Shown here piece by piece: positions 10,242-16,642 of a stretch of 36,416 nucleotides of DNA. The notes beneath the pieces were generated by a model. It had not been told where the DNA came from. It saw only the letters and a program-made list of their open reading frames with translations, and did no database searches. This DNA comes from a candidate division WOR-3 bacterium (lineage in GTDB: Bacteria; Hydrothermota; Tepidihabitantia; Tepidihabitantales; Tepidihabitantaceae). Made by a program: the position numbers and the translations under genes. The stretch's first letter is position 1. Every line of letters starts with the position of its first letter. Where the stretch lies: positions 1 through 36,416 of the forward strand of contig JBDRUH010000007.1 in NCBI GenBank assembly GCA_039801225.1, written 5' to 3'.

Positions 10242-11786
10242 ATGATTAAAAGAATCCTTTTTTGTTTGTCTTTCTTATCAGCGACGGTGTTCGCGGGGAA
10301 ACCGCCTATTATCTACTGGGATTTAGAAGAGCGACCAGAAGAGCCACCCTTTCCGGTTCTTTCTTTGAGAGTCAAAGCCCTGGGTGAGGAGTTCTTAGGA
10401 ATTGTTGCCGATTTGAGAAGCGATATCCTCTTAAACCCATCGCTTATTCCTTTGTTAGAAGAGAATGAAGTGGCTATTACCTTTTTGCCCAATATGCCCG
10501 GTCTCTATTACCGGCAAAATCTAATCGCCTCCTCGGTCTTTCTCCCGAAATTATTTATTCGCCAACTGGGTTTTGGGGCTCACAATCAATTCACTTCTTT
10601 TAGTTACGGTTACCAGTCCTTTTATTACGATTATTACTTAAGAGACGAAGACTTCAGCTCTTTTCAGCAGTCGCTTTTTTTACCCTGGTCTCTTTCCCCT
10701 TTATTAAAACTCGCCCTCTCTTACACATTTACCAGAAGTCCCCTTGAAATAGAGGGCGGATATGAGAGTGAAAATTACGAAATAGAAAATAAAGATACCG
10801 TTAATATCAGGAGGTATACCTACGGTTCGCAACTTGCGGACATCCTCTCTTCTCATCAATTTGGTTTGGGAACGACCTTTAACTTTTCCACCCACCTTTT
10901 ACAGTTGACATTCTCTTATAAAAAAGGGAAAAACGAAATTGACTATCACCAAAATAGCGAGGATTACCTCCTCCATACCGATTCTTCTTTCTATACTTAT
11001 GACAGTTCTTATCACTATCTCTTTTGGAGAAGGGTGGATTACCTAACCACCGGCGGTGAAGTTGATGATTCCAAAGAGGGTAATGAGATAAAATTCACCG
11101 GTCGCTTTAGTAAAGCGGTTGAGGGCGAGAAGCGTTTTAACGCCCTCTTGAACCTGGCTAAATCATCGGCAAATTTAAAGGGAAGGGAAAGAGACTCCTC
11201 TTACAATTTCCACAAGGATTCTGTTTATGAGCGGTGGCAGAACTATCCCAATCCTGAGTCAACTGATATTGACACCCGCACCTTAACCGAATATTTCACC
11301 AAGAACCTCAACATCAGCGGCAGGACAGAAAAGATAACCGGGGTTTTCGGTTTGGGTTATGAGTATCCGATTAACAAATCTCTTAAGGGTTTTTGGGGTT
11401 TAAAAACGGTTTGGGCAATGGAAAAGGATAGTGTTCAAAAAGAGGGTTTAGAAATCTTCACTGATAGTCTGACCGATTCCAATCTCGTTTCCAACTATCA
11501 AGTGAATAATATTAATACCCTCACAATGGCTATCCCGTTGGGATTGGAATATAAAATCTCCTCTCTGATATTGAGAGGCGGAATTACCCCGAAGTTTACT
11601 TATCAGAAGAGTATATTTAAAGACGAGCGCAAGACCTATCCGGATTTAGCCAGTTATGTCCTTGATATAGCATATTCCTGGGGAATCACTTGGCGGGTTT
11701 TAGAGAGGCTCTCCTTTGATGCCTACAACTCGGGGAATCTCTTCACTTTAAAAGATTGGCTTATTCAGTTCTCTTATTGGTTCTAA
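10242..11786 (+). CDS. hypothetical outer-membrane beta-barrel protein
   Basis: AGGAGG SD, signal peptide ending VFA, alternating aromatic strands, C-terminal IQFSYWF. Confidence 0.65.
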   Translation: MIKRILFCLSFLSATVFAGKPPIIYWDLEERPEEPPFPVLSLRVKALGEEFLGIVADLRSDILLNPSLIPLLEENEVAITFLPNMPGLYYRQNLIASSVFLPKLFIRQLGFGAHNQFTSFSYGYQSFYYDYYLRDEDFSSFQQSLFLPWSLSPLLKLALSYTFTRSPLEIEGGYESENYEIENKDTVNIRRYTYGSQLADILSSHQFGLGTTFNFSTHLLQLTFSYKKGKNEIDYHQNSEDYLLHTDSSFYTYDSSYHYLFWRRVDYLTTGGEVDDSKEGNEIKFTGRFSKAVEGEKRFNALLNLAKSSANLKGRERDSSYNFHKDSVYERWQNYPNPESTDIDTRTLTEYFTKNLNISGRTEKITGVFGLGYEYPINKSLKGFWGLKTVWAMEKDSVQKEGLEIFTDSLTDSNLVSNYQVNNINTLTMAIPLGLEYKISSLILRGGITPKFTYQKSIFKDERKTYPDLASYVLDIAYSWGITWRVLERLSFDAYNSGNLFTLKDWLIQFSYWF

Positions 11787-12288
11787 ACACACTAAACGGT
11801 TGTAACTTTATTAAATGGGTTGCTTCGGGCTCTATCCCAAACTTCTGAGAAGGCTAAGTTTAGTTATATATAAACAAAATTCCGATGGCTAAAATTGAGT
11901 TAAGTTTCGTAATTAAATAACTTAATTAGAAGACCGGTTTATCTGGGGGGCTGTCCACTCCAGCACTAGGGTGGTAAAACCCTTTCCTGACTCGGTTTTG
12001 GACCTGTTGCTAAGTTTGATGTTAAAATCACAGTTAAATTGAAAGGTAAAATCAAATGGCGGGATGGCTGTAAAAATTGGTCTAAAAAAGTTTTCAGGAG
12101 TGGCTTTTAATTTAATCCTAAGTTAAAGCCCAAAAAGAAGGCTAAAAAGCGCCTGAAGATCTGATTTCAAAAAAGTCCTAAAAAGGAAGATTCAGCCGAT
12201 TTTAACAACCAAATTAAAATTAAAAGATATCAAATGAGTTTAAGAAACAAAGCAGACAAACAAGAAGGTCAAAGAAATCTGCGGCTAT

Positions 12289-12347
12289 GGGATTACTTCG
12301 TCGCTTTTGCTCATCGCCCAAAAACGGGCACGATTCTGTGCAATGAC
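12289..12347. repeat. REP-like palindromic element with an internal hairpin insertion
   Basis: GGGATTACTTCGTCGCTTTTGCTCATCGC...GCAATGAC resembles recalled GAGATTGCTTCG...CTCGCAATGAC intergenic repeats; inner gccc-aaaaac-gggc hairpin. Confidence 0.45.
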
Positions 12348-12371
12348 CATCATTAACAGCGGTAGTTTTTC

Positions 12372-12399
12372 TTGACTGAAATTGATTGGAATTTATGAT
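12372..12399 (+). promoter_or_regulatory. sigma70 promoter of the selenoprotein operon, probably leaderless
   Basis: TTGACT 12372-12377, N16, TATGAT 12394-12399, then 6 nt to ATG 12406. Confidence 0.55.
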
Positions 12400-12405
12400 T
12401 GAGCG

Positions 12406-13200
12406 ATGTTACGCAGGTTTATATTTTGGGGAATTTTCGCCGGGCTGGTCGCGCTTTGTTGTTCGGAAGCACCCCAGATTGTCCGTGAAGCAAACCGGCT
12501 GGTGCTGGTTGAACTTTTTTCTACACCCTTAGATGAATGACCTTACTGCGCGTCCGCGGCGCGGGCATTGGAGAGTTTGAAGGCGGTTTATGGCGATTCA
12601 ATGGCTTTTGTGATTTATTACTCAGGTGAAGCCCATCCCGAGCTTTCATCGCCGGCGGGCAAAGCCCGGAATGAGTGGTATGGCGTTGGTGTGGAGGCAC
12701 CGCTGGCTTTCTTCAATGGAACATTACGCTCACCGCATATTATGATTCCGGACTCATTTTATCCGGTTTATCGGGATATGATTGACGCCGCCCGGTCGCG
12801 GAAAACCTGCCTGGAGATGGCACTTGACAGCTCCAGCACAACCATTGACTCGGCAACACTGCGGCTTCTAGTCAGGCTCACGCCAACCGACTCGTTAATT
12901 GACACAATAACGAGCCTGAGGCTGGTGGCGATTGTATTTGAGGACAGCATCCCCTATTACTCTTCTTTCGTTGGCGACACCACTTATGCACCAATGGCGG
13001 TGCGTAAGGTAATCGGTGACAGTTTCGGCATCCCCGTAACTTTAAAATTTGGCCGGGATTTTGATACCCTGCTGACAACCGGCGTCAGTGGTTATAATGT
13101 TAACCGGCTCGGGGTTGCTGTTTCGGTTCAGGATTTTGTCACCAAGGAGGTGTGGCAAAGTGTGGTTAAATGGCGAATTAAAAGAGAGGAGGCAAGATGA
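12406..13200 (+). CDS. putative selenoprotein: exported Omp28-like/thioredoxin-fold protein with UPYC motif (Sec45, 264 aa)
   Basis: MLRRFIFWGIFAGLVALCCSEAPQIVREANRLVLVELFSTPLDE-TGA(12538-12540)-PYCASAARALESLK continues in frame into ORF 12568-13200. VLVELFS...xxC is a thioredoxin-fold active site. Signal peptide present; hairpin after the TGA. Confidence 0.82.
12552..12566 (+). promoter_or_regulatory. candidate bacterial SECIS element 1
   Basis: GUCCG-CGGCG-CGGGC stem-loop; loop starts 17 nt after the UGA with G in position 2. An alternative pairing CGCGUC/GGCGCG is also possible. Confidence 0.5.
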
Positions 13201-13748
13201 AGAGACTCTTTTTCATTATTATAGCCTTGATGTTGGTTTTGAGTGCCGTGAGCGCTGAGGAGAAAGAGGAGCCCAAGTATGAAAAGGCACCGGACTTTAC
13301 TCTATCGGACATTGAAGGCAATGAAGTAACCCTGTCAGAACTGTTGAAAGTGGGACCGGTATATATGGAGTGCTGGGATTTGTCCTGTGTCAACTGTATT
13401 AACGAACTGGATGCCCTTTTACCGGTTTATGACTCGCTGAAGGAAAGAGGTTTACAGATTATCGCCCTTTCGGTGGATAAGCCTTCGGATGCGGCGCGAG
13501 TGAAGGCTTTTGTTAAAGCAAAGAAGTGGCCATATATTGTTCTCTTGGACCAACAGCAAAAGGTGAAGAAGGCGTATAACATCATTATCAAACCTACCGC
13601 GGTGTTGGTTAATATGAAAGGTGAGATTGTCTATACCCATATCGGGTATAAGAAGGGCGATGAGAAAAAGATTGCTCTTGAGATGAGCAAGTGGCTGCCC
13701 GAGGAGGAAGATGAGCCAACCGGCGAGGAGGGTGAGAAACAGAAATGA
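13197..13748 (+). CDS. exported TlpA/ResA-like thiol-disulfide oxidoreductase
   Basis: Signal peptide, APDFTLSDIEG, WDLSCVNC (CxxC), IIALSVD, PTAVLVNMKGEIVY; ATGA overlap with the upstream gene. Confidence 0.88.
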   Translation: MKRLFFIIIALMLVLSAVSAEEKEEPKYEKAPDFTLSDIEGNEVTLSELLKVGPVYMECWDLSCVNCINELDALLPVYDSLKERGLQIIALSVDKPSDAARVKAFVKAKKWPYIVLLDQQQKVKKAYNIIIKPTAVLVNMKGEIVYTHIGYKKGDEKKIALEMSKWLPEEEDEPTGEEGEKQK

Positions 13749-13755
13749 GGTACCT

Positions 13756-15207
13756 TTGACTTTTCTCCTTCTTGCTACGCTATTTGGCACCAATTTTACC
13801 ATTCAAGGGAGTAACCGGGCAGAGTTCTGGGGTTATCAGGAGGAGTGGGCAACAAGCGTTGAAAATAAACTGGATTTGACCGCCCGTTACGGCGACTTTG
13901 AAGGTGAGTTCGGGCTACTTTTTTTTGAACCCTCAAAGCACTCACCGGCGGTGCGCAAACCAATCCGGCTTTTGGACTATTCAGTTGGCTATAACCCCAA
14001 GGAACTTGAACTCCGGGTGGGTAGGTTTTTTGCTACATTCGGTCAGGGGCTATCGCTACGCACCTATTCGGATGACGACTTTCGCCATTACAAGAGCCTG
14101 CACGGACTTTTGGGCAGGTTTCGGCTGCCGTTACGCAGTGAAATAACCCTCTTGGGTGGTAGGCTGCGAGATATATTTTTCCAGGAGAATACCTATAAAA
14201 TAATGAACGAACTGGACACTGCCGACCAGGTTTTGGGCGTAGACCTGACCACCCAGCCAATGAGATTTTTGAACTTTGGCGGTAGATATGTTCGGATTAA
14301 TCGGGAGGCGGACCCGAGTGCCAAGGCGTTTACCGAACTTTTTGGTGGCGGTGCCGGTCTAAATTTTGGACCAGCAGCAATTTCCGGCGAGTTATGCTGG
14401 CGTCTCGGAACAAAACCCGGTATTGGCGGTAGGGAAAAAGGTATTGGTGGCGTGGCAAATGTCAGCCTGACCCTTGCCGGTTTTTCCATCATCGGTCAGT
14501 ATGTTGATTACACCCGGCTCGGCTTTCCTCCTGAAGTTTATCACTACAATGACCCGCCTACTCCTATTAAGTCTGGTGTGGCGATAAATCGCGGGGTTGA
14601 CGAAAGAGGTTTTGGCATTCAGGTCTCCGGAATGCCGACCGGTAGCCTTTATCTTGAGGCGGAGTTAGGTAGACTGTTTGTCCATGATGATACCAGCGCT
14701 GGGGTTTTAGAGGGGGAGTTTAAGGGCAAATATACCTTAAGCAGCAACTTGACTGTTGAGACAAAGTTCAATTCTATGCTACAGAAAAATATTGAGTCAG
14801 GAACCTATCGCCGGATAACCAACCGCCCTGCTCTTTTGTTTAATTATTCACTTGACAACCACACCTTTGCCTTTGAGGCGGAACTGGGCTGGGTGGAGGA
14901 GCGTCCAACCGACACCAGTAAGGGGGCGGTATGGCGATATCACGAACCGAACATCTCTTTCAGTTACGGCTACAGTGAGAAATGGTTTTGGACAGTCTCT
15001 TGGCAGGGGGTTGATAAGGATTCATTGAAAAGGTATGACAATCAGAAATCCTGGCCAATGTTTGAAACGGTCTGGAACATAAATGAGCGGAATGTTTTGC
15101 GAGTCCGGGTGGGCGCGGAAAAGGGGGGCTATACCTGTTCGGGCGGGGTGTGCCGTTACGAGGCTCCCTTTCGGGGTGTAAAGTTGCAGTTAATCAGCCG
15201 AATATAA
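13756..15207 (+). CDS. outer-membrane beta-barrel with C-terminal CxGGVC motif (DUF6029-like)
   Basis: ELRVGRFFATFGQGLSLR and C-terminal GGYTCSGGVCRYEAPFRG; probable start TTG 13756 after GAGG. Confidence 0.7.
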   Translation: MTFLLLATLFGTNFTIQGSNRAEFWGYQEEWATSVENKLDLTARYGDFEGEFGLLFFEPSKHSPAVRKPIRLLDYSVGYNPKELELRVGRFFATFGQGLSLRTYSDDDFRHYKSLHGLLGRFRLPLRSEITLLGGRLRDIFFQENTYKIMNELDTADQVLGVDLTTQPMRFLNFGGRYVRINREADPSAKAFTELFGGGAGLNFGPAAISGELCWRLGTKPGIGGREKGIGGVANVSLTLAGFSIIGQYVDYTRLGFPPEVYHYNDPPTPIKSGVAINRGVDERGFGIQVSGMPTGSLYLEAELGRLFVHDDTSAGVLEGEFKGKYTLSSNLTVETKFNSMLQKNIESGTYRRITNRPALLFNYSLDNHTFAFEAELGWVEERPTDTSKGAVWRYHEPNISFSYGYSEKWFWTVSWQGVDKDSLKRYDNQKSWPMFETVWNINERNVLRVRVGAEKGGYTCSGGVCRYEAPFRGVKLQLISRI

Positions 15208-15210
15208 GTG

Positions 15211-15345
15211 ATGCGTAAGGTATTAGTTATTTTACTGGTGCTCTTGGGCGTGGTAGCGATTGCGTTCGGGATAAAATTGGGAATGCTATTGGTGATTCGT
15301 GGGTTTGCCGGACAGATATGACTATCCTGTATGGGTCTCGTGTAG
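15211..15345 (+). CDS. putative small membrane selenoprotein with ULSC motif (Sec37, 44 aa; CD1871A-like CxxC peptide)
   Basis: MRKVLVILLVLLGVVAIAFGIKLGMLLVIRGFAGQI-TGA(15319-15321)-LSCMGLV-TAG. Fills the gap between the OM barrel and the 4Fe-4S gene and matches the recalled I-C-L-x-C-I/M-G pattern. Confidence 0.8.
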
Positions 15346-15350
15346 ACCAT
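15331..15350 (+). promoter_or_regulatory. candidate bacterial SECIS element 2
   Basis: AUGGGUCU-CGUGU-AGACCAU, 7 bp with one bulged G; loop starts 18 nt after the UGA with G in position 2. Confidence 0.6.
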
Positions 15351-15355
15351 TAAAA

Positions 15356-16642
15356 ATGCCGAAAAGAAGAGTTGCCCCTTATCGCATCGGTCAGATAATT
15401 GGGACGGTCGTTCTCAACGCCTATATCCTTGCCTATATTCAAGGCAAAATTATCTACTCCGGGTTTCTGAAGAGCATCCCGGAGCCGGTTCTTAACTGTT
15501 ATGGTGGTCCGCTATCGGTCTTTGCCTGCCCGCTTGGCTCATTTCAGCAGATTTTTGGTCAGCAGGGGCTGGCATTTTATTTAAGAATACCATGGGTAAT
15601 CATCGGTCTTGTGGTGATTATCGGTGCGTTCGTCGGCAGGACCCCTTGTGCCTGGGTCTGTCCTTTTGGACTATGGCAGGATTTGCTTTACAAAATAAAG
15701 GTTGGTCCCCAGGCAAAGGGCAAGCGCTGGCTCACCTTTTCGGTTATCGGGCTAATCGGTTTGGTGGTGGTAGCGCTCTTAGTGGTTTTTGTCAAAGTCA
15801 ACCTCTTTAAAGCACTTCTCTTCGGCTGGCTACCGTTTATCGTCCTCTGTCTTTTTGGGGCGCTCAAAGGGAAAATGAATTTACCCGGACGCTGGTTTTT
15901 AAGCGGGACGCTGGTCGGAATCGGATTAGGACTGTTTGTGGGGTGGAAGCACGACATTAACCTCGGCATAGCCAGCGGAGTTGTAGCGTTGACTTTGTTT
16001 AGCCTTGCCAGCAGTAAAGTAACACTTCTACTTGCAGTTCCCACTGGTTTTGTAATATCACTTTTCGGTAGAGGCGTGCAACTTGGACCCTTTGCCGGTG
16101 CTGAACTGGGAATGCTTTTTGCCATTTTTGCTTTCCTGGTGGTAATGGTGTTTGACCAGTGGCTGAAAATCTCTTTGCCGGCAACCGGCTTGAAATATCT
16201 CTTTCTGCTCTTGGTGGCGGGTTTAGTCGCATTCTTTACCGGTGAACCTTGGTTCTGTAAACTTTGCCCCCAGGGCACATTAGAGGCGGGAATTCCTTTA
16301 GTTCTCTGGGACCCGGTCCAGGGTCTGCGGGCACTTGTCTCCTGGCTTTTTTATCTCAAAGTAGGAATTCTCCTTTTTGTCATCTGGGCGGCAATGCTTA
16401 TTAAACGACCCTTCTGTCGGATAGTCTGCCCGATTGGTGCAGTATACTCAATCTTTAACCGGGTCAGCCTTTTACGGCTGAAACTGAACCGGGAAAGTTG
16501 CACCCGATGCCAGGTCTGTCGCCGGGTTTGTCCGACCGATATTGAGCCTTATGAAGAACCAAACCAGACCGACTGTATCCGCTGTTTTGAGTGTGTCTGG
16601 AAATGCCCCCGTTCCAGTTTGAAAATAACGCTTGGCGGATAG
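15356..16642 (+). CDS. polytopic membrane 4Fe-4S binding protein (NapH/MauN/RdxA-like)
   Basis: FACPLG, GRTPCAWVCPFG, WFCKLCPQG, RPFCRIVCPIG and two ferredoxin motifs (CTRCQVCRRVCP, CIRCFECVWKCP); start moved to ATG 15356. Confidence 0.88.
   Translation: MPKRRVAPYRIGQIIGTVVLNAYILAYIQGKIIYSGFLKSIPEPVLNCYGGPLSVFACPLGSFQQIFGQQGLAFYLRIPWVIIGLVVIIGAFVGRTPCAWVCPFGLWQDLLYKIKVGPQAKGKRWLTFSVIGLIGLVVVALLVVFVKVNLFKALLFGWLPFIVLCLFGALKGKMNLPGRWFLSGTLVGIGLGLFVGWKHDINLGIASGVVALTLFSLASSKVTLLLAVPTGFVISLFGRGVQLGPFAGAELGMLFAIFAFLVVMVFDQWLKISLPATGLKYLFLLLVAGLVAFFTGEPWFCKLCPQGTLEAGIPLVLWDPVQGLRALVSWLFYLKVGILLFVIWAAMLIKRPFCRIVCPIGAVYSIFNRVSLLRLKLNRESCTRCQVCRRVCPTDIEPYEEPNQTDCIRCFECVWKCPRSSLKITLGG

Follow-up and report, generated by a model that had tools for sequence, protein, structure and literature searches.

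A probable selenocysteine codon in the active site of a putative exported thioredoxin-fold protein from a candidate division WOR-3 bacterium

The locus and its reading frame

The question at this locus is whether the TGA at 12538-12540 is a stop codon or whether it encodes the redox-active residue of a longer protein. The window, by which we mean the whole 36,416-nucleotide stretch analysed here (contig JBDRUH010000007.1 of a candidate division WOR-3 bacterium), holds the gene on its plus strand. Under translation table 11 the ORF runs from TTG 12568 to 13200, giving 210 aa with the N-terminus MESLKAVYGD. As a preliminary description of the sequence had said, that ORF is without a leader and without a CxxC motif. 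Translating TGA as U gives one frame from ATG 12406 to a terminal TGA at 13198-13200, with 12538-12540 as the sole internal TGA and a length of 264 codons plus the stop. The read-through product has the N-terminus MLRRFIFWGIFAGLVALCCSEAP and the active-site segment VLVELFSTPLDE-U-PYC, and the read-through thus supplies both of the elements that it had been said to supply, a leader ending in CC and the motif of the active site. There is an in-frame stop 2 codons 5' of the ATG, and therefore 12406 is the only possible start. The features of the gene are as follows, with the residue at the TGA numbered 45.

12406..13200, plus strand: probable selenoprotein coding sequence, internal UGA read as selenocysteine (translation, orthologue alignments)
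12406..12462, plus strand: putative signal peptide, residues 1-18, and invariant Cys19, whose codon is 12460-12462 (residue conservation, AlphaFold2 helix)
12538..12540, plus strand: UGA, probable selenocysteine 45, first residue of the U-P-Y-C redox motif (same column in orthologues)
12547..12549, plus strand: Cys48, the putative resolving cysteine of U-x-x-C (invariant in 63 sequences)

Recoding of TGA across the whole genome was one candidate explanation, and it is rejected. TGA terminates 11 of 30 long ORFs of the window, these 30 having been chosen from the 40 listed by leaving out ORFs that are nested in or overlap a longer one, so TGA is an ordinary stop here, in agreement with what had been said of it before.

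Conservation of the TGA and its cysteine counterparts

Searched in six frames, 166 of the 272 genomes of the phylum have matches. All 28 of the complete orthologous loci that were fetched, at 41-76% identity, have exactly one internal TGA, and it is in the same column as in the window. Another 41 loci are more distant; 16 of them read U-x-x-C at the site, 22 read C-x-x-C, mostly as C-[VTP]-Y-C-P, and 3 have no alignment over it. The compared genomes are kin, and counts such as these overstate the independence of the cases. The 22 Cys forms have TGT or TGC at the UGA column, and the Cys paralogues are continuous proteins with CxxC in that place. Homologues were expected to have CxxC at this site, and they do: C-x-x-C is found in 22 of 22 Cys forms, beside U-x-x-C in 44 TGA forms.

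The part of the frame that lies before the TGA can be examined for the pattern of its substitutions. Between Cys19 and the TGA, the pairwise differences per site among the 15 orthologues with the same spacing are 0.12, 0.09, and 0.52 at codon positions 1, 2, and 3, and the same comparison in the other 13 orthologues gives 0.26, 0.25, and 0.50. Because the differences concentrate at third codon positions, the stretch upstream of the TGA reads as coding sequence that is conserved as protein. A gene that only seemed to extend upstream could have had homologues with no Cys at the column and an unconserved leader part. Both points are contradicted, the first by the Cys column, which is kept, and the second by the bias of the upstream differences toward position 3.

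These data bear directly on the reading of the TGA as a nonsense mutation or an assembly error, by which the locus would be a pseudogene or would contain a mis-read Cys codon. One such case probably exists elsewhere: a TGA-bearing paralogue (L073/L118) has a Cys-clade sequence, no hairpin of the kind described below, and no cluster neighbours, as a Cys gene would that was broken or mis-read. What stands against this reading at the window locus is that 28 of 28 orthologues, taken from separate assemblies, have the TGA in this column, that purifying selection is seen on both sides of it, and that a covarying hairpin lies behind it. A check of the reads for the TGA had been proposed as well. The Logan contigs from all 3 runs covering 12538-12540 (X1, X2, and X4, all from a single study and perhaps from the source sample itself) keep the TGA and have no other letter there. 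We give an error or a pseudogene next to no weight. Run X5, which is labelled metatranscriptomic and is probably DNA, covers 12648-12914 only.

A different question is raised by the way the gene appears in public databases. Searching protein clusters with the read-through query returns 27 clusters, with source names of candidate division WOR-3, and every one is a fragment of 163-210 aa that contains the post-TGA part only, covering 49-78% of the query. This is what the gene callers make of the locus, and taken at face value it would mean 2 products, a 44-residue peptide ending at TGA 12538 and a 210-residue protein starting at TTG 12568. Yet the 27 nt between the TGA and TTG 12568 encode, in frame, the invariant Cys48 and other conserved residues; the Cys paralogues are continuous; and the downstream fragment would lack the leader and, from a fold predicted confidently as one domain, both strand 1 and the active site. 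The TTG at 12568 also falls within the hairpin. That the cell makes the 2 products separately is hardly credible on this evidence, and we continue with the single read-through protein.

A conserved hairpin behind the UGA

If the UGA is read as selenocysteine by a bacterial system, a SECIS-type element in the mRNA is of interest, and a scan of that type had been suggested for this gene. A covarying hairpin is found just 3' of the TGA.

12550..12568, plus strand: candidate SECIS-type hairpin, 5' arm 12550-12557, loop GGC 12558-12560, 3' arm 12561-12568 (alignment A1, pair counts, RNAalifold)

In the 28-sequence alignment A1, an 8-bp helix with a triloop begins 10 nt past the UGA. Pairing is kept in 98.2% of the 224 cells of this helix, and compensatory changes, meaning changes on both sides, are found at 5 of the 8 pairs. 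None of 500 shuffles matches the observed pairing or the covariation score, controls slid to other registers are 29-60% paired, and RNAalifold independently yields the same helix. The copy in the window has 6 Watson-Crick or G-U pairs, followed by a C.A mismatch and a final G-U, and its minimum free energy (MFE) of -9.2 compares with a family median of -13.5. The element is revealed only by the comparative analysis: folding 12530-12610 as a single sequence gives nothing better than shuffles (z +0.75), and an Rfam scan of 11700-13300 with E up to 1 finds no family.

There are 2 details by which selection on the RNA can be told from selection on the protein. The first base of the loop is G in 28 of 28 sequences, while the codon that contains it varies among GCG, GAG, GUG, and UUG, for Ala, Glu, Val, and Leu. 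At columns 30 and 38 a C-G pair is replaced by U-A, where the change on one side is a synonymous Ser change and that on the other side turns Arg into Gln. Because the loop G is invariant in a varying codon, and because an Arg-to-Gln change preserves a pair, the constraint on the hairpin region appears, from the alignment, to act on the RNA rather than on the protein.

The hairpin also separates the TGA forms from the Cys forms. With MFE computed over 27 nt from position +10, the median is -13.5 kcal/mol in the 44 TGA forms versus -4.45 in the 22 Cys forms (Mann-Whitney p 9e-11, which the kinship of the genomes makes too small as a measure of independent cases). A stable hairpin, with an MFE of -9.0 kcal/mol or lower, is present in 43 of 44 TGA forms versus 2 of 22 Cys forms, and 41 of the 44 TGA forms have it in the exact register of the window.

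Selenocysteine machinery and the reading of the UGA

The source genome, an assembly of 1.5 Mb in 72 contigs that is 88.8% complete, has the full pathway. SelB scores 381 bits, SelA 571 bits, and 2 SelD proteins 359 and 337 bits, all of them above the curated cut-offs. The gene of the 337-bit SelD adjoins selB and has an in-frame TGA of its own. A tRNA-Sec is found with 74.6 bits, which likewise exceeds its cut-off, and ARAGORN calls it tRNA-SeC with anticodon TCA.

By this machinery, SelB carrying Sec-tRNA(UCA) would bind the mRNA hairpin at 12550-12568 and would deliver selenocysteine to the ribosome at UGA 12538-12540. The arrangement resembles the recoding in E. coli fdhF in that the UGA is in frame, a hairpin lies a short way past it within the coding sequence, the loop starts with G, and SelA, SelB, SelD, and tRNA-Sec are present. 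The difference from fdhF is in the dimensions, since the stem in the window is only 8 bp, the loop has 3 nt (GGN), and the first loop base is 17 nt past the UGA. A SECIS consensus specific to the organism and shared between its genes was considered and rejected, as the genome's own selD SECIS has the loop AGUUG at +26 to +30, with a loop size and a spacing unlike those of the hairpin at 12550-12568.

The shortness of the hairpin, and the fact that selenocysteine is assigned here by inference, leave some room for a near-cognate or suppressor tRNA that inserts one of the standard amino acids (Cys, Trp, or Gly) at the UGA, with the hairpin as a mere stimulator of read-through. The genome, however, keeps the full Sec pathway, the UGA stands in place of a redox Cys to make a classic Sec/Cys pair, and the 11 long ORFs of the window that end in TGA show that the codon is not generally read through. 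We consider a standard amino acid at this position improbable. Our reading is that 12406-13200 is the gene of a selenoprotein with a thioredoxin fold, in which UGA 12538-12540 encodes selenocysteine, and we put its probability at roughly 0.9.

A promoter-like site

The preliminary description placed a promoter directly before ATG 12406, and a site of that description is present.

12372..12399, plus strand: promoter-like site TTGACT-16-TATGAT, ending 6 nt before the ATG (10 of 12 matches)

Promoter-like sites in the scanned region are no commoner than in shuffles. The support for this one comes from its conservation: the arrangement TTGAC[ACT], 16-17 nt, TAnnnT, and then the next in-frame start at -5 to +10 nt is found in 27 of 27 orthologous loci, which are those with enough upstream DNA. 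Transcription usually starts 6-8 nt past the -10 box, so with a promoter abutting the ATG the mRNA would be leaderless or would have a very short leader.

The protein: fold, active site, and export

Alignment A2, with 63 sequences, has the invariant residues C19, S20, P23, R31, E36, U/C45, C48, and Y92. The AlphaFold2 model of the read-through protein has a mean pLDDT of 93.5 and a pTM of 0.87. It begins with a leader helix (residues 2-18), from which a linker of low confidence leads to a beta-alpha-beta core of the thioredoxin type and a C-terminal beta-sandwich. In the core, strand 33-39 is followed by U45 and by helix 46-65, and P99, which is conserved in at least 90%, precedes strand 100-103; we infer that P99 is the cis-Pro of the thioredoxin fold. 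The marks of that fold are thus present: strand 1 leads to a C/U-x-x-C that opens helix 1, and a conserved Pro stands ahead of strand 3. When PDB sequences are searched with a profile, U-x-Y-C falls on the CPYC/CPHC of 1nho and 1fo5, both small thioredoxins, with Sec45 on the first Cys of each. The nucleophile of thioredoxin-fold enzymes is the N-terminal residue of this motif, and therefore Sec45 is in the attacking position, where the preliminary description had put it. On this reading, Sec45 and Cys48 would cycle between the selenol/thiol and the selenenylsulfide states, and we propose that the protein may act as a thiol/selenol-disulfide oxidoreductase.

The leader has 2 Arg residues, then 13 hydrophobic residues (F5-L17), and then C18-C19. 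Cys19-Ser20 is invariant in 63 of 63 sequences; in the window S-E-A-P trails Cys19, and an acidic residue is found at +3 in 53 of 63. The residue before the cysteine was compared with the lipobox consensus. It is S, G, or A in 33 of 63 sequences and non-canonical (F, R, Q, H, and others) in 30 of 63; in the window it is Cys. The hydrophobic N-terminal leader and the invariant Cys19-Ser20 support export of the protein. The leader is probably of the lipoprotein type with a relaxed lipobox, and Cys19 the probable lipidation site, although lipidation is not certain because the residue before Cys19 is non-canonical in the window and in 30 of 63. After export by the signal peptide, Cys19 would most likely tether the protein to a membrane of the cell envelope.

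Relation to known families

What family the protein belongs to depends on the level at which it is asked. Foldseek against the PDB finds as its best match 5y1a, HBP35 of P. gingivalis, with E 2.2e-10 and TM 0.70 over 252 columns, followed by 2axo, a DUF1223 protein, with E 4e-10, and by the Omp28 domain 2r2c with E 1e-5 and TM 0.65 normalised to the target. Against the curated model NF045500, 'Omp28-related selenoprotein', the window protein scores 21.9 bits and stays below the cut-off of 200, and against NF033782, 'Omp28 family outer membrane lipoprotein', it scores 21.4 bits and stays below the cut-off of 150. Pfam gives the window protein no Omp28 (PF11551) match, only a sub-threshold Glutaredoxin. 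A search of its own genome with NF045500 has no match, and 0 of the 272 genomes of the phylum reach the NF045500 cut-off, the best score being 97.8 bits. Among the 63 relatives, taking E up to 0.01, which admits weak matches, 58 match NF045500 (best E 3e-21) and 59 match NF033782 (best E 9e-20); 23 of the 63 match Pfam Omp28 PF11551.

The earlier label of Omp28-like therefore stands at the level of the superfamily, through the 58-59 of 63 matching relatives and the fold match to 2r2c, but not at the level of the family, where 21.9 and 21.4 bits are to be compared with 200 and 150. Because of the score of 21.9 against 200 bits and the 0 of 272 genomes over the cut-off, the protein is not a member of the curated NF045500 family; it is a distant branch of the Omp28/HBP35 thioredoxin superfamily.

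The resemblances to the described members can be listed with their limits. NF045500 has a thioredoxin-like fold, U-x-x-C, and Cys homologues in common with the window protein, but the model has 377 positions and the window match ends at 265, so NF045500 members are longer. The Omp28 family (NF033782, PF11551, and 2r2c) has a lipoprotein-type leader, as the window protein probably does, and the C-terminal beta-sandwich matches 2r2c. HBP35 (5y1a) has an N-terminal thioredoxin domain with C-x-x-C and a beta-sandwich in common. It has Cys rather than Sec, a C-terminal type IX secretion domain, and haem binding, whereas the window protein would use Sec, has a leader that is probably of the lipoprotein type, has no C-terminal sorting domain, and is 13% identical to it. 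According to the portion of the HBP35 work available to us, recombinant HBP35 reduces insulin and its C48S/C51S mutant does not (PMC2907840). In Zhang & Gladyshev 2008 (PMC2398784), 'Hypothetical protein GOS_C' is given as having a thioredoxin-like fold with UxxC, with 74 Sec and 312 Cys sequences, and the paper nowhere uses the word Omp28. By this description, GOS_C is like the window protein in its thioredoxin-like fold with UxxC and in its Cys homologues.

Our literature search returned no paper joining Omp28 and selenoprotein and, among the selenoprotein papers listed, nothing on the family of the window protein; for WOR-3 and selenocysteine it returned work on Lost City metabolism, not on this gene. 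UxxC selenoproteins with a thioredoxin fold are already on record, including the 'Omp28-related' NCBIfam model, and the window protein is a divergent member of a recognised kind.

The gene cluster and a possible module

Downstream of the selenoprotein gene there are 3 genes on the same strand, the first of which overlaps it by ATGA.

13197..13748, plus strand: ResA/TlpA-like exported thiol-disulfide oxidoreductase, AhpC-TSA/Redoxin fold, with CVNC (family matches, synteny)
13711..15207, plus strand: DUF6029 protein, a probable outer-membrane beta-barrel, with invariant C476-x4-C481 (GGYTCSGGVCR; family match, alignment)
15299..16642, plus strand: NapH/MauN-like polytopic membrane ferredoxin with CxxxCP motifs and 2 4Fe-4S motifs (family matches, synteny)

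Beyond the NapH-like gene the same strand encodes lipoyl synthase and then an MFS transporter. In all 28 close orthologous loci the Sec gene has the ResA-like gene as its immediate neighbour, and DUF6029 too lies downstream. In the extended orthologous loci the NapH-like gene and LipA are found in 8 of 8 and the MFS gene in 6 of 8. The 19 distant TGA-form loci, which reach down to 27% identity and include other families of the class, have the ResA-like gene in 18, DUF6029 in 17, and the NapH-like gene in 16, and the misses are the hairpin-less outlier L118 and 2 contig ends. Among 20 Cys-form loci, DUF6029 is found in 0 and the NapH-like gene in 0, and there is 1 ResA-like match, at a contig end.

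With E up to 1e-10, 203 proteins are homologous to DUF6029; some of them carry Porin_4, and one source name is alginate-export domain protein. In the portion of PMC9603273 available to us, DUF6029 is tied to the Wzi beta-barrel by HHpred. All 45 aligned DUF6029 proteins keep the C-x4-C near their C-terminus, as do those of the 8 extended loci and of the 17 distant loci in which the C-terminus is present.

What the cluster does can be approached by comparison with the pathways that lead from DsbD/CcdA to TlpA/ResA/CcmG. In common with them there is a ResA/TlpA-like exported CxxC protein next door, and at another place the genome has a gene for a CcdA/DsbD-type membrane protein (40.8 bits). The differences are that the inner-membrane partner in the cluster is a NapH-like iron-sulfur protein, not DsbD, and that the pathway here would end in a probable Sec lipoprotein, which has a probable outer-membrane barrel for a partner. 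We would suppose that the Sec gene is co-transcribed with the ResA/TlpA-like, DUF6029, and NapH-like genes from the conserved promoter. The ResA/TlpA-like neighbour would be the likely electron donor that keeps the Sec45-Cys48 centre reduced, and the Sec protein may act on a DUF6029-linked substrate, either the Cys pair of the barrel itself or something passing through the barrel. This assignment of the electron path and the substrate is tentative, and we would sooner expect it to need revision than to hold as given. Put together, the genes may form a four-gene redox module of the envelope, conserved across a class of the WOR-3 phylum, in which electrons would go from the NapH-like protein, replacing DsbD, to the ResA/TlpA-like protein and on to the Sec lipoprotein, which would act on or through the DUF6029 barrel. 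The complete module in this form is doubtful.

Significance

Every public copy that was found, in 27 of 27 protein clusters, had been cut by gene callers, and therefore the databases lack the catalytic part and the export signal of the subfamily, and counts of selenoproteins in this hot-spring phylum come out too low. The Arg-to-Gln change that keeps a SECIS base pair is an example of an RNA structure constraining the sequence of a protein. The Sec form, with its hairpin and its cluster of ResA-like, DUF6029, and NapH-like genes, can be set against the Cys form, which has neither hairpin nor cluster, and the split provides a testable context for families that are uncharacterised, namely the Omp28-like redoxins and DUF6029. 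We know of no described system that takes thiol or selenol chemistry to the outer membrane or across it. The proposed module, if it is true, would do just that, and what could be of consequence at this locus is the conserved four-gene cluster that accompanies the Sec form.

Sequences upstream of the selenocysteine gene

Two features lie ahead of the thioredoxin-fold selenocysteine (Sec) gene at 12406-13200:
10242-11786, 514-aa exported protein, upstream of the intergenic region preceding the Sec gene
12314-12346, 33-bp dispersed repeat within that long intergenic region

The exported protein has no Pfam or NCBIfam match. A search of the 1.5 kb preceding the Sec gene at the 27 other close orthologous loci (L021-L047) and at one partial locus (L048) did not find it. 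The repeat has 4 copies in the genome when up to 3 mismatches are allowed. On contig C31, 2 of these are inverted relative to each other with about 1 kb between them, an arrangement that resembles the two termini of a small mobile element. Contigs from metagenomes match the window over the 33 repeat bases only, and their sequence beyond differs from that of the window.

Downstream cluster genes

Two members of the downstream cluster are considered here:
13711-15207, DUF6029 barrel
15299-16642, NapH-like ORF, listed with a GTG start

The barrel has a cysteine pair, C476-S-G-G-V-C481, that is invariant among the aligned homologues and sits within a strongly conserved C-terminal block, GAEKGGYTCSGGVCRYEAPFRGVK. 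The NapH-like ORF contains 3 CxxxCP-type motifs and 2 4Fe-4S motifs; its listed GTG start is probably too far upstream, and Met20 (MPKRR...) looks like the true start.

Other TGA-bearing genes

Two further loci are of interest:
C5:25243-26151 of the window's own genome (locus L009), one of two selD genes, adjoining selB at C5:26205-28073
C137:11452-12165 of genome G131 (L073/L118), a paralogue with TGA at the redox column

The L009 selD itself encodes a selenoprotein, with the motif C-A-G-U-A-S-K. In the hairpin 3' of its UGA, the loop is AGUUG (5 nt, +26 to +30), which differs from the GGN triloop found in the Sec gene at 12406-13200. The L073/L118 sequence (FTNAR-U-TYCPW) falls in the Cys clade; it has no hairpin after the TGA (MFE -5.0), nor any ResA, DUF6029 or NapH gene among its neighbors. 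This TGA probably reflects either a nonsense mutation or an error in sequencing.

Extent of the family

A phylum-wide search finds many further Omp28/thioredoxin-like domains in WOR-3 genomes. They lie within open frames roughly 600 aa long, of which some have one in-frame TGA and others none. Hence, the Sec/Cys family is much larger than the short form to which the gene at 12406-13200 belongs.
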